From Escherichia coli (GTDB lineage: Bacteria; Pseudomonadota; Gammaproteobacteria; Enterobacterales; Enterobacteriaceae): a DNA stretch of 47,404 bases. Shown piece after piece: positions 13,535 through 16,638 of this stretch; the stretch's first letter is position 1, and each line of letters opens with the position of its first letter. The position numbers were made by a program, and so were the translations under genes. The stretch lies in NCBI RefSeq assembly GCF_003334335.1, contig NZ_QOWQ01000035.1; one strand, given 5' to 3'. The notes under the pieces were generated by a model. It had not been told where the DNA came from. It ran no database searches and saw only the letters and a list, made by a program, of their open reading frames with translations.

Positions 13535-14413
13535 TTACGCCAAATTTACAGAGAAGATTTCCTCGAGCATTGCCCCCGCCAGACGCTGCGCTGAACAGAG
13601 TCGTGGCATCCCCAGCGCGACAGTTTGCCAGCGTTGGGTCACTGACCAGCAAACGGGTTGTTTATCTGCCGTGGTCCACTTTCCCAGCCAACTTAAAAAA
13701 TCAGCATGCTCCCCGCCCGTCGGAACGGTCGAAGAGGCAAACCACTGATGGTAATAGTGACGCGTGGTCGGTGCCGCATTGATACTCTCTGCCAGATGTT
13801 GTGTCGCTTTCTCGAGCAAATCACCCAGCAACAACGCCACCGCTTGCGGGCTTCCCAGACGGCAGGCATCGCCAAATGCCCCCCAGCGCAACTCCTCCAG
13901 AACGATAAAACAGCGCCCAGGCAACGACCAGGCGTTATACGCCCCAGCACGCCAGCGGGTAAAAATTTGCTCGCTCTGATCACCTGCCTGCACCAGTAGG
14001 CCTCGTTGCGTTAACGCCTTTTCCTTCCAGCGACAACGGGCTGAAAACCACTCATACAAGGCGGCAATTTGCTGGGGGAGCTCCGGGAAAGCAGAGTGCT
14101 GGCGGTGATCCATTTTTTGCAGCAGCGCCAGATGCTGCGCGATCTGCGTCAGTGCCAGATGACCGGGATCCAGCATCGACGCCAGTTTTTCCACCAATGT
14201 CAGACGCAGGCTAAGCGGCGCATTTAACATGCCGCCGTTCGTCCATGTCTGAAGCTGCACACGCGAAAGAAGTTCCTGCATCAGTCGTTCACGAAACTGC
14301 TGCTGATGGGCTTGTGGAAGGCGGGCATCATCACCCTGCGCCAGATCCACTAAAAAGCGGGGATAAACCGACTCCAGCACGCGACCGGGGCCGTCAAGTA
14401 ACGTCTTGGTCAA
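13535..14413 (-). CDS. yjcZ: YjcZ, protein of unknown function co-transcribed with crfC
   Basis: 292-aa ORF; start overlaps crfC stop by 4 nt. Confidence 0.9.
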   Translation of the reverse strand: MTKTLLDGPGRVLESVYPRFLVDLAQGDDARLPQAHQQQFRERLMQELLSRVQLQTWTNGGMLNAPLSLRLTLVEKLASMLDPGHLALTQIAQHLALLQKMDHRQHSAFPELPQQIAALYEWFSARCRWKEKALTQRGLLVQAGDQSEQIFTRWRAGAYNAWSLPGRCFIVLEELRWGAFGDACRLGSPQAVALLLGDLLEKATQHLAESINAAPTTRHYYHQWFASSTVPTGGEHADFLSWLGKWTTADKQPVCWSVTQRWQTVALGMPRLCSAQRLAGAMLEEIFSVNLA

Positions 14414-16638
14414 TATCGTTCTGCCGTGAAAAGTGTTTGAATATCATCGCGTAACAGCTGGGCGTCGGTGTAAATCCAGCCGTGAGTCATCACAGTCTGC
14501 TGCAATTGCTGCTGCATCAGCCTGACCACCGATTCATTTTGTTGACGCAGAGCCAGACTTTCGCGTAAACGCGTCTGTAATTCCGTCAAACATGAAGCAA
14601 ACTCAGCGAAAAAAGTATTCATGCCTGCCGTAACAGATTCATCGACCTGCTCTGCCAGAACTTTAGCCATTTGTTGGCAATAGAGATCGACTTCTGCGCT
14701 TAATGCTCGTTGCAACACACTGTAATCAACCGTTTCTGTCGGTGATTTCTCATTTCCCCGTCCCCAGTCGGGCTGATTCAACCAGCGCGAAAAAGTCTCA
14801 CGCACAACGCCTAAACGCGTGCTCTGCTCGTCCGTTGCTTCCTGGCGCGAAATGACTTCACTGAACAGCTGGCGAGTGTTGAAGTGGGGAACTACGCCGT
14901 GAAAAACAGGAAAATGAAACCCAGGACGAAACCCTGACTCGCTCAATTCCATTTTGACTTGTTGCTCAATGGGGCGAATAACATCGGTTAACACCCGGCA
15001 AAGGGTGGATTCAAGCTCGGCAAAACGCAGCGTAAAGTCGCGACTGATGGTGTTCTGCGCCGTCTGTAACAGTGTCTCACAGCGGGTACGAATCTCGCTT
15101 AACGGCTCCGAATCATCCTGAAACAAGGCGGCTAACTGCACCTTCAGCGCATCTTGCTGTTGACGCAGAAAGTGGTTGGCGGAGGTCAGGGCCAGCTCGA
15201 TTTCATGTTTAATCTCGCCGCTCACCTGCGCCTGATTGAGTTGCAATAGCTGCAAACTTTCTTCGATCTGGTGGATATTTTGCCGCAATTGTTCACAAGC
15301 GACGTTTAACCCGTGCGCACGAAAATCCAGGTATTCCCGCGCCTGCTGCGCGTAATTCAACAGTTTATGCGCGGCAGATCGCAGAGCATACAACGAGGCG
15401 TTAGCGTAAGCGGCATGAAGCAACGCCTGAATTGGCTGGGCGAACAGCGAATCTTCCCACAACTGATCGGCAGCATGACGAATATGTTCGAGGTCCGCCA
15501 GATCGGCATGACGCCAGCGCCTGCCAAGCGCGGCATGGGCAAAATCTTCCACCCAGCGTTGTTGCTCTGGCGGTGGTAACTTACCGTTGTTGGCTAACTC
15601 ATAGCGCGCCCGATTCGCCAGGTAGCCCCACATCGACGACACCGGAAATATCTGCTGTGGCGTAATACAGCCTTTCATCAGCGTCCCGGAAATCAGTGCC
15701 CGCACCTGGTCGGCGTCGTCACTGTTACGATCCTGTTGATCGAACTTATTGACCAGCACGTACAGCGGCACCGATTGCCCCACCGCCAAAATCGCCTCAC
15801 GGACCTCTTCATCGGAGATCGATTTCAGTTGCGTATAATCCAGCACCGCCAGTACCGCCGAGGCGCGTGCCAGCTGCTGGTTAAGCATTTTTTGCAGATG
15901 CGGTTGCCCGGCTTCATTTGGCCCGGGGGTATCCAGTAACGTCAACTGACCGGGATAACTCTCCAGCCCCGCTAGATGGACAAACTCCACTTCAATCACG
16001 GGAATATGCTCAATGGCGGCGTAAGCAGAAAAAGGAAAATCGACGTCCAGCGCCTTCGCCAGTCGCACTAAATCATTCAAACTTTTCAGACAATGAAAAA
16101 TAGGCTGGGCACCCAGATAATATTTTTCGAAAGCGACGCCATTTTCGATCCGCTGCATAAGCGCACGCATATCTTTATCTATTTCCAGCACATCGGTCAG
16201 ATGCTTAATATCGCAATCACGCAGGCGCTGTTGTAATTGTTGAATTAAACAATCGATTGGCGCGACATGTGAAAAATGCAGTACCGGTTCCTTTTGCCCG
16301 GGCGTATGGCGAATAAGCGTCGGCAGCGCAGTCATTGGGCGATTACGATTAGGCAGAACCTCCGTACCAACAATGGCATTAATGGTGGTTGATTTCCCTG
16401 CTTTCATGGTACCGACAATTGCAAGCACCATTTCCAGTCGGGAAATTTTACGCAACTCATTATTCAGCATCGCGTGACGTTCGGCGATATTAGGCTGACT
16501 CCAGGGTAAAGCCAGTTGTGGCGCGTCGTCTCCGGGTACAGAGAGAGGCATTTTTTCCAGTAACTGCAACTGTTGGCGAGAAAGCTGTAACAGGCGTTCA
16601 GCCTCCTGACTTAACTCATACAGGGTCTGTGTGTACAT
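14410..16638 (-). CDS. crfC: dynamin-like large GTPase CrfC (YjdA)
   Basis: 742-aa ORF with P-loop GTMKAGKST and coiled-coil-rich remainder. Confidence 0.93.
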   Translation of the reverse strand: MYTQTLYELSQEAERLLQLSRQQLQLLEKMPLSVPGDDAPQLALPWSQPNIAERHAMLNNELRKISRLEMVLAIVGTMKAGKSTTINAIVGTEVLPNRNRPMTALPTLIRHTPGQKEPVLHFSHVAPIDCLIQQLQQRLRDCDIKHLTDVLEIDKDMRALMQRIENGVAFEKYYLGAQPIFHCLKSLNDLVRLAKALDVDFPFSAYAAIEHIPVIEVEFVHLAGLESYPGQLTLLDTPGPNEAGQPHLQKMLNQQLARASAVLAVLDYTQLKSISDEEVREAILAVGQSVPLYVLVNKFDQQDRNSDDADQVRALISGTLMKGCITPQQIFPVSSMWGYLANRARYELANNGKLPPPEQQRWVEDFAHAALGRRWRHADLADLEHIRHAADQLWEDSLFAQPIQALLHAAYANASLYALRSAAHKLLNYAQQAREYLDFRAHGLNVACEQLRQNIHQIEESLQLLQLNQAQVSGEIKHEIELALTSANHFLRQQQDALKVQLAALFQDDSEPLSEIRTRCETLLQTAQNTISRDFTLRFAELESTLCRVLTDVIRPIEQQVKMELSESGFRPGFHFPVFHGVVPHFNTRQLFSEVISRQEATDEQSTRLGVVRETFSRWLNQPDWGRGNEKSPTETVDYSVLQRALSAEVDLYCQQMAKVLAEQVDESVTAGMNTFFAEFASCLTELQTRLRESLALRQQNESVVRLMQQQLQQTVMTHGWIYTDAQLLRDDIQTLFTAERY

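Follow-up and report, generated by a model that had tools for sequence, protein, structure and literature searches.

The window analyzed here, a 47,404-nt stretch of Escherichia coli DNA, carries two open reading frames, crfC and yjcZ, both located on the minus strand. An earlier note on this DNA, made from the sequence alone, had reported a 742-aa and a 292-aa frame under these two names; both frames are found where it placed them, and both names agree with the NCBIfam CrfC equivalog, Pfam YjcZ and RefSeq. The features of the locus are as follows (positions are those of the window).

14410..16638, minus strand: crfC (yjdA, rdcA) coding sequence, 742 aa, ATG start; a soluble bacterial dynamin-like GTPase, annotated in RefSeq
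13535..14413, minus strand: yjcZ (rdcB) coding sequence, 292 aa, TTG start; an all-alpha partner
16504..16518, minus strand: beta-clamp-binding motif 41-QLALP, CrfC residues 41-45 (motif according to PMC6374313)
16390..16413, minus strand: P-loop (G1) GTMKAGKS, CrfC residues 76-83, with K82; invariant in 22 homologues
14638..14665, minus strand: sigma-28 (FliA) promoter for yjcZ, inside the 3' end of crfC, TAAAGTTC-N11-GTCGATGA
14410..14413, minus strand: TTGA stop/start overlap, where the TGA ending crfC has bases in common with the TTG that starts yjcZ (...CGA TAT TGA)
16639..17038, no strand assigned: AT-rich (31% GC) region between the divergent crfC and yjdM genes, the presumed location of the crfC promoter

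In E. coli chromosomes that match the window crfC-yjcZ pair at 100% identity, the genes lie between proP and yjdM and are annotated in RefSeq as crfC and rdcB. The 3.5-kb crfC-yjcZ segment is present in 5418/5426 complete E. coli genomes, and full-length homologues of both CrfC and YjcZ occur in other genera; thus, the two frames are not chance open reading frames. Plus-strand frames of 60-97 aa that run antisense within crfC and yjcZ were unsupported and were treated as noise. There is no Rfam match within 13535..16638, and the stretch between yjcZ and proP has no convincing candidate for an intrinsic terminator.

The dynamin-like GTPase and its partner

CrfC scores 1597 bits (cutoff 1146) against the NCBIfam equivalog NF007368, "clamp-binding protein CrfC", and residues 72-277 match Pfam Dynamin_N (E = 7e-18). 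The P-loop noticed earlier near residue 80 is the GTMKAGKS of residues 76-83, and its lysine, K82, is the residue mutated by Pfiffer et al. 2019 (PMC6510439). The remaining G motifs are T103 (G2), DTPG at 236 (G3) and NKFD at 297 (G4). All of G1-G4 are invariant among 22 homologues, and in the window CrfC both K82 and T103 stand at their published positions.

An AlphaFold2 model of CrfC (pLDDT 75.8) contains helices at residues 400-505, 513-568 and 639-741. Searched with Foldseek over its whole chain, the model matches bacterial dynamin-like proteins and mitofusins, among them SynDLP (7zw6, 4e-13) and BDLP (2j69, 7e-12), each at a probability of 1.00; differences in stalk conformation keep the TM-scores low (0.3). 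As modelled, CrfC consists of a G domain (~68-350) followed by a long helical stalk (~400-741). The "long coiled-coil" of the earlier note does correspond to long helices in the model, but these are read instead as the helical stalk. The tip region, residues 569-638, where a membrane-binding paddle or hydrophobic tip would be expected, is predicted with low confidence (pLDDT 41-57); it contains GFRPGFHFPVFHGVVPHF, and G569, F570 and P577 are invariant. The G motifs, together with the helical stalk and whole-chain fold, place CrfC in the bacterial dynamin-like branch of the dynamin superfamily, and the earlier assignment of the 742-aa protein as a dynamin-like GTPase is upheld by the Dynamin_N match, the G1-G4 motifs and the fold. 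GTPase activity and oligomerization of CrfC/RdcA are known from the literature (PMC6510439, PMC6374313), where the protein is also described as soluble and without a typical membrane-binding motif (PMC6374313, PMC6510439).

The 292-aa product matches Pfam YjcZ with E = 1e-143. Its N-terminus is conserved among homologues from M1 on, and the same start is used in RefSeq. The observation that the earlier note had named as speaking against a partnership, frequent occurrence of yjcZ homologues away from a crfC homologue, was looked for; instead, a crfC homologue lies directly upstream of yjcZ, on the same strand, at 80/80 of the species loci fetched. Even among distant YjcZ clusters, 10/11 are preceded by a dynamin-like gene. 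From this strict, family-wide adjacency one may guess that RdcB is a stalk-binding adaptor or regulator specific to the dynamin-like clade of RdcA; its suggested biochemical roles are GTPase-activating factor, nucleotide-release factor or adaptor.

The stop/start junction and the internal promoter

Counting the stop codon, crfC and yjcZ overlap by 4 nt, as reported earlier; the overlap is TTGA (14413..14410), and the start is TTG rather than ATG. An NTGA junction is found in 76/81 loci and is ATGA in 72 of them; L077 and L078, two loci whose alignments begin 3 nt downstream of the ATG, are included in the 72. The TTGA form occurs in only 4 loci of the 81, all from Escherichia, and the non-NTGA junctions are TGATG (1) and TAA-nn-ATG (4). 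Thus, yjcZ starts with TTG in Escherichia, whereas other genera use an ATG within an ATGA overlap. The TTG start is weak and has no good Shine-Dalgarno sequence. Given the TTGA overlap, the weak TTG and the lack of a good Shine-Dalgarno sequence, yjcZ would be translated from full-length transcripts by termination-reinitiation, coupled to crfC. It is the geometry of the junction only that suggests this translational coupling, and the conservation of the overlap across genera fits with it.

Expression of yjcZ does not depend on full-length transcripts only, as a FliA promoter inside crfC gives rise to a separate yjcZ transcript (Fitzgerald et al. 2014, PMC4183435). The motif published from FliA ChIP-seq for (yjdA)yjcZ recurs in the window without a mismatch. 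This site agrees with the consensus at 13/16 positions, and only 3 sites of the entire window score that high. It precedes the yjcZ start by 252 nt and sits at exactly -252 in most genera. The crfC codons beneath it encode AKVLAEQVDES. Within the two promoter elements, synonymous third positions are conserved at 0.93, compared with 0.63 at 91 other sites, and in a permutation test 0/20,000 permutations reach the observed value. By this measure, synonymous-site conservation of the intragenic sigma-28 promoter extends across genera. When fliA is deleted, the yjcZ RNA-seq signal falls from 52 to 1 (Fitzgerald et al. 2014, PMC4183435), and so the internal promoter seems to be the source of most yjcZ mRNA under those conditions. 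For such mRNA, coupling to the translation of full-length crfC cannot apply. The promoter within crfC gives yjcZ an mRNA of its own that is under flagellar control. Consequently, the description of the two proteins as "co-translated" holds for an overlap that is conserved across genera, but leaves out that yjcZ also has a FliA promoter and a transcript of its own (PMC4183435).

Pfiffer et al. (PMC6510439) describe rdcA-rdcB as an operon controlled by FlhDC/FliA, which implies a sigma-28 promoter upstream of crfC as well. In 16639..17100, however, no site reaches 11/16, in agreement with Fitzgerald et al. 2014 (PMC4183435), and the only matches upstream of crfC are generic sigma-70-like ones.

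The separate promoter (PMC4183435), and the frequency of NTGA overlaps in compact bacterial operons, could be taken to mean that the overlap is incidental and that crfC and yjcZ are functionally independent neighbours. This is extremely improbable: the strict adjacency (80/80 species loci and 10/11 distant clusters), the conserved junction geometry (NTGA in 76/81) and the published physical interaction and identical mutant phenotypes (PMC6510439) all argue against it.

The role of the pair

The crfC-yjcZ pair is already known; its interaction and cellular role were published in 2019 and it is in the RefSeq annotation. Working in E. coli K-12, Pfiffer et al. 2019 (PLoS Genet, PMC6510439) renamed yjdA and yjcZ as rdcA and rdcB. 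In their bacterial two-hybrid assays, RdcA and RdcB bind each other tightly, and a second partner of RdcA is the MASE1 domain of DgcE, a diguanylate cyclase that acts in biofilm formation. Deletions of rdcA, rdcB and dgcE have the same, non-additive phenotype, and activation of DgcE needs both rdcA and rdcB. A K82A allele complements, nucleotide-free RdcA being the active form, while T103D, a GTP-locked RdcA, has lost DgcE binding (all PMC6510439). The functional partnership proposed earlier is thus borne out, and the two-hybrid check suggested for it had already been published with a positive RdcA-RdcB result (PMC6510439); the statement that the partnership is "not well characterised" is outdated, given the published interaction and DgcE role (PMC6510439) and the RefSeq name rdcB.

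We therefore consider it probable (roughly 0.8) that this is the rdcA (crfC/yjdA)-rdcB (yjcZ) operon of the E. coli core genome, which encodes a DgcE-activating dynamin-like GTPase and its binding partner. The functional evidence on RdcA/RdcB and DgcE comes entirely from the literature; dgcE itself is absent from the window and is encoded elsewhere in the genome. In the mechanism drawn from published experiments, the RdcA/RdcB complex docks on the membrane-embedded MASE1 domain of DgcE, and docking switches on c-di-GMP synthesis, leading to CsgD, curli and cellulose. GTP is the inhibitor in this mechanism; with the nucleotide-free form active and the GTP-locked form unable to bind DgcE, the pair senses the fall in GTP upon entry into stationary phase.

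A different role is attached to the name crfC. CrfC oligomers may bind the beta sliding clamp via QLALP and keep sister replication forks joined, so that nucleoids are partitioned equally, with YjcZ irrelevant or accessory. A function in clamp binding and chromosome partitioning is described by Taniguchi et al. 2019 (PMC6374313), citing Ozaki et al. 2013, the NCBI protein name is "clamp-binding protein CrfC", and the window CrfC has 41-QLALP with the essential Q41. However, the motif is absent or altered in all of the non-E. coli homologues aligned: it is PLTLP (Q41 to P) in Escherichia sp. E1V33 and is replaced by V(L/Q)PLHF in other genera. The G domain, stalk, RdcB partner, overlap and sigma-28 promoter, unlike QLALP, are conserved. 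Furthermore, YjcZ is unmentioned in the CrfC paper (PMC6374313), and Pfiffer et al. (PMC6510439) argue that clamp binding is GTP-independent and that deletion causes no growth defect, so that clamp binding may be moonlighting. As an account of the locus, the clamp role is possible but is the less likely one. Among the homologues aligned, the clamp motif is restricted to E. coli, while all else is conserved.

Outside the core clade, YjcZ-family genes are found in mobile dynamin-YjcZ-patatin cassettes, which 48% of E. coli genomes carry. A 2026 transcriptomics paper (PMC12922286) called these, in passing, putative dynamin defence systems; we found no literature specific to this triad beyond that description. 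On another reading, crfC-yjcZ is itself a dynamin module that acts against phages or in membrane stress, as do DynA, LeoABC or, putatively, the patatin cassettes, with DgcE activation being secondary. The paralogous cassettes do pair dynamin-like and YjcZ-like genes with a patatin that has intact motifs, they lie in islands beside restriction-modification, toxin-antitoxin and antirestriction genes, and CrfC itself gives weak PADLOC hits (LeoBC, 5.8e-6; LeoA, 3.2e-5). But these hits are partial, at the level of the G domain and stalk, and RdcB, which is not a dynamin, has none. The significant LeoA and LeoBC matches and the paired-dynamin operon that define the anti-phage Dynamins/Eleos systems (LeoA + LeoBC) are not found for crfC-yjcZ. 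The window pair lacks a patatin gene, and no patatin gene or remnant lies near yjcZ in the window or within 5 kb at 81 core loci. In addition, crfC-yjcZ is core-genome and syntenic rather than island-borne, belongs to the flagellar regulon (PMC4183435) and encodes an RdcA reported as soluble (PMC6510439), and a search of 50,697 phage records for the triad found nothing. A defence function for the core pair is thus quite unlikely, and we retain its reading as a DgcE-activating operon.

One broader scheme would accommodate both forms, and we offer it tentatively, as somewhat doubtful. The YjcZ/RdcB family may be dedicated adaptors of one dynamin-like clade, linking nucleotide state to a separate effector. 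In the mobile form the effector would be the downstream patatin phospholipase, making it a possible abortive-infection or membrane-conflict module. The core rdcAB would then be an effector-less, domesticated derivative, placed under sigma-28 and rewired to DgcE.

Comparison with known systems

Relative to RdcA/RdcB of K-12, the genes in the window are the same (742 and 292 aa) and have no structural difference; what is added to the published system is descriptive, namely the Escherichia-specific TTG and the synonymous-site conservation of the internal sigma-28 promoter. Compared with CrfC the clamp binder, the protein is identical and QLALP is kept, but the CrfC literature leaves out the downstream partner.

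Among solved structures, the relatives of CrfC are SynDLP (7ZW6), Nostoc BDLP (2J68/2J69), IniA (6J72), Campylobacter DLP1/2 (5OWV) and the mitofusins. They share the G domain and the long helical stalk with CrfC over the full length (Foldseek E from 4e-13 to 1e-7), whereas sequence identity to solved dynamin-like structures is 12-16%, and the sequence match with BDLP lies in the G1-G2 region. Bacterial dynamin-like genes are mostly paired with a second dynamin-like gene. The partner of crfC, in contrast, is a 292-aa non-GTPase, and RdcA is known to target a domain of a membrane protein, not the lipid bilayer (PMC6510439). If RdcB is a general coupler of GTPase to effector, this would represent a new mode for bacterial dynamins, effector signalling instead of membrane remodelling.

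A further comparison is with the paralogous dynamin-YjcZ-patatin cassettes, which about half of E. coli genomes have. The cassette form is widespread in gamma- and betaproteobacteria and far more diverse. Its dynamin-like protein is 33% identical to CrfC and its YjcZ-like protein is 30% identical to YjcZ, and the cassettes retain the same gene order and the same 4-nt overlaps as the core pair; the family motifs LEELRWGxFGD and MPRLCSA are common to both. Residues L175, W177, G178, G181, W224, P253 and P270 of RdcB recur throughout the family. Unlike the window locus, which is without a patatin, the cassettes add a patatin-like phospholipase with intact GxSxG and DGG motifs, and they form part of the accessory genome, on islands or plasmids, whereas crfC-yjcZ belongs to the core genome.

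Gene identity, pairing and the conserved junction

The following features of the window, and motifs of the encoded CrfC protein, bear on the crfC-yjcZ locus.

16638..14410, minus strand: crfC (yjdA, rdcA) ORF, 742 aa, ATG start
16504-16518, minus strand: QLALP clamp motif with the essential Q41, residues 41-45
14665..14638, minus strand: sigma-28 motif TAAAGTTCTGGCAGAGCAGGTCGATGAA, over crfC codons AKVLAEQVDES
14413..13535, minus strand: yjcZ (rdcB) ORF, 292 aa, TTG start
14410-14413, minus strand: TTGA overlap; the last two bases of the yjcZ TTG lie within the crfC TGA stop
CrfC residues 76-83: P-loop GTMKAGKS
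CrfC T103: G2 threonine
CrfC residue 236: DTPG
CrfC residue 297: NKFD

The ORFs, P-loop and stop/start overlap described in the earlier note are all borne out by the ORFs, the junction (...GAA CGA TAT TGA) and the G motifs; the minus-strand location of both genes and the TTG start of the partner are new details. Its gene identities and pairing are also correct. The 742-aa protein scores 1597 bits against the NCBIfam CrfC equivalog (cutoff 1146) and matches Pfam Dynamin_N (E = 7e-18), while the 292-aa protein matches Pfam YjcZ (PF13990; E = 1e-143). RefSeq names the genes "crfC: clamp-binding protein CrfC" and [quoted passage not shown], flanked by proP and yjdM. Many E. coli chromosomes match the 3.5-kb segment at 100% identity, and 5418/5426 complete E. 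coli genomes contain it; it is a known feature and an ordinary one in this species. In many database entries (clusters of P0132 and P0124), members of the YjcZ/RdcB family carry the name "chemotaxis protein" or "methyl-accepting chemotaxis protein". As Pfam gave RdcB no match other than the YjcZ domain, this naming may be an annotation artefact.

A scan of 100,044 species representatives with the YjcZ alignment as query confirmed 111 relatives, of which 80 loci were kept. Nearly all are titled as Enterobacteriaceae genera, the others being a few MAGs labelled "Proteobacteria" alone and one labelled Chryseobacterium. The earlier note had held that yjcZ homologues often lying apart from crfC would speak against a partnership; in 80/80 loci the YjcZ homologue begins right where a CrfC homologue (53-92% identical) stops, on the same strand. 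When the RefSeq E. coli locus (L001) is added, the junction is an ATGA overlap in 72/81 loci, including two species loci (L077, L078) with the ATG 3 nt upstream, a TTGA overlap in four (Escherichia only), TGATG in one, and TAA-nn-ATG in four. Such a tight, conserved junction supports a putative translational coupling of crfC and yjcZ. Among L001-L081 the rdcB TTG start is confined to Escherichia, the other genera using ATG instead, in most cases as part of the equivalent ATGA overlap, which suggests weaker independent initiation of rdcB in Escherichia.

Elsewhere in the window, three tandem REP/BIME-type elements lie between yjdM and yjdN (17392-17668, plus strand; Rfam naRNA4, 95-111 bits), and more copies are present at 20144-20224 and 47042-47225. 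The enterobacterial sRNA STnc630 (11561-11726, minus strand; full-length Rfam match, 182 bits) overlaps the pmrR region at the basS/pmrB 3' end. A SECIS_2 selenocysteine insertion element (44519-44573, plus strand, 87 bits) is directly upstream of ORF 44575-46254, a placement that fits fdhF with its in-frame UGA, the likely gene name as judged from E. coli gene order. The ORF at the phnE position (20180-20812, plus strand) encodes just 210 aa and probably represents the known phnE pseudogene allele; in E. coli EC416 (L001), which has a crfC-rdcB segment 100% identical to that of the window, RefSeq flags a frameshift in phnE.

An internal sigma-28 promoter

The earlier description of the genes as co-translated fits the overlapping junction but is incomplete, since yjcZ is also transcribed from a FliA (sigma-28) promoter inside crfC. 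ChIP-seq located a FliA site within yjdA that drives yjcZ, and deleting fliA lowered yjcZ RNA from 52 to 1 (Fitzgerald et al. 2014, PMC4183435); a later reporter study confirmed FliA-dependent activity. Thus, RdcB can be made without RdcA, under flagellar control. The motif lies 252 nt upstream of the yjcZ TTG. Across the window just three sites reach its score, and none of similar score is found upstream of crfC. In most genera the element is at exactly -252, and conservation at its synonymous third positions is 0.93, versus 0.63 for 91 synonymous sites elsewhere in the final 420 nt of crfC; 0/20,000 permutations were as high as the observed value.

Structure and function of RdcA and RdcB

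The RdcA model (22-sequence alignment; mean pLDDT 75.8) contains a G domain (~68-350), helices at 400-505, 513-568 and 639-741, and a low-confidence tip (569-638). Its Foldseek matches are SynDLP (4e-13), Nostoc BDLP (7e-12), IniA, Campylobacter DLP1/2 and mitofusins. The region previously described as long coiled-coil is indeed long and helical and, given these dynamin-like neighbours, is a dynamin-type helical stalk. Escherichia CrfC lacks a ~32-40-aa stalk segment after residue 512 (window ~15100, minus strand); the segment is present in all other genera (homologues of ~783 aa) and is longer again in mobile paralogues. RdcB is modelled as all-helical (mean pLDDT 74, pTM 0.76); a PDB profile search for its structural neighbours was empty, and AFDB50 returned family members alone, none informative.

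The claim that the partnership is not well characterised is out of date, as the two-hybrid experiment then proposed had been published by Pfiffer et al. 2019, who renamed yjdA and yjcZ rdcA and rdcB (PMC6510439). In their bacterial two-hybrid assays RdcA interacted with itself, tightly with RdcB, and with the MASE1 domain of the diguanylate cyclase DgcE, whereas RdcB showed no interaction with DgcE or with itself. Deleting rdcA, rdcB or dgcE alters CsgD, curli, cellulose and c-di-GMP in the same, non-additive way. Because RdcA K82A (no GTP binding) complements, while T103D (GTP-locked) does not and loses DgcE binding, nucleotide-free RdcA is the active form and GTP the inhibitor. The authors suggest that RdcB may be a GTPase-activating or nucleotide-release factor (PMC6510439).

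The same protein has been described, as CrfC, as a beta-clamp binder acting through 41-QLALP (PMC6374313). Among aligned homologues (alignment A2) QLALP is found in E. coli only; the sequence is PLTLP in Escherichia sp. E1V33 and V(L/Q)PLHF in other genera, with an LxLx[FW] pattern retained. In contrast, the G domain, stalk, partner gene, overlap and internal promoter are conserved. This comparison is in keeping with clamp binding as a lineage-specific or moonlighting activity, and does not disprove it.

Mobile relatives of the pair

For the wider family, outside the window, a profile search across 1.84 billion representative proteins yielded no more than 263 clusters. The core Enterobacteriaceae clade makes up 10 tips of a neighbour-joining tree built from 95 full-length members; intermediates (34-44% identical) occur in Mangrovibacter, Dryocola, Cronobacter, Atlantibacter and Siccibacter. 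Readable contigs were available for 11 clusters that are more distant, of which 10 have a three-gene cassette with overlapping junctions, encoding a dynamin-like protein (~800 aa), a YjcZ-like protein (~300 aa) and a patatin-like phospholipase (~350 aa). The exception, L088:5001-7630 on a 1.44-Mb metagenome contig, encodes a 532-aa DUF3944::YjcZ fusion (DUF3944 N-terminal) followed by a patatin gene; parE/parC-type topoisomerase IV genes and no dynamin-like gene lie upstream, making it the sole family member seen without an adjacent dynamin.

In E. coli O157:H7 (L089:5620-9973, CP018247) the cassette has 4-nt overlaps at both junctions and encodes a 794-aa dynamin-like protein (33% identical to CrfC), a 301-aa YjcZ/RdcB-like protein (30% identical to RdcB) and a 356-aa patatin phospholipase with intact GxSxG and DGG motifs. 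The cassette is also present at L082 and L091-L102. It occurs in 2613/5426 complete E. coli genomes, with at most 5 copies in a genome; 44 plasmid records also carry it, and no phage record matched. Its island neighbours include Ag43/Cah, antirestriction, RadC and CbtA/CbeA genes. PADLOC lacks a model for the cassette. Operons of this type, "dynamin - RdcB family - phospholipase", were noted in a 2026 paper, which proposed that they act in defence (PMC12922286).

Unlike the mobile cassette, whose dynamin-like and YjcZ-like genes are paralogous to crfC and rdcB, the core pair has no patatin gene: the 5 kb around each of the 81 core loci contain none, and neither does any part of the window. The one forward-looking thread from the locus is the idea, drawn from gene order, that RdcB-family proteins might link this clade of dynamins with an effector enzyme, which would be DgcE for the core pair and patatin for the mobile cassettes.
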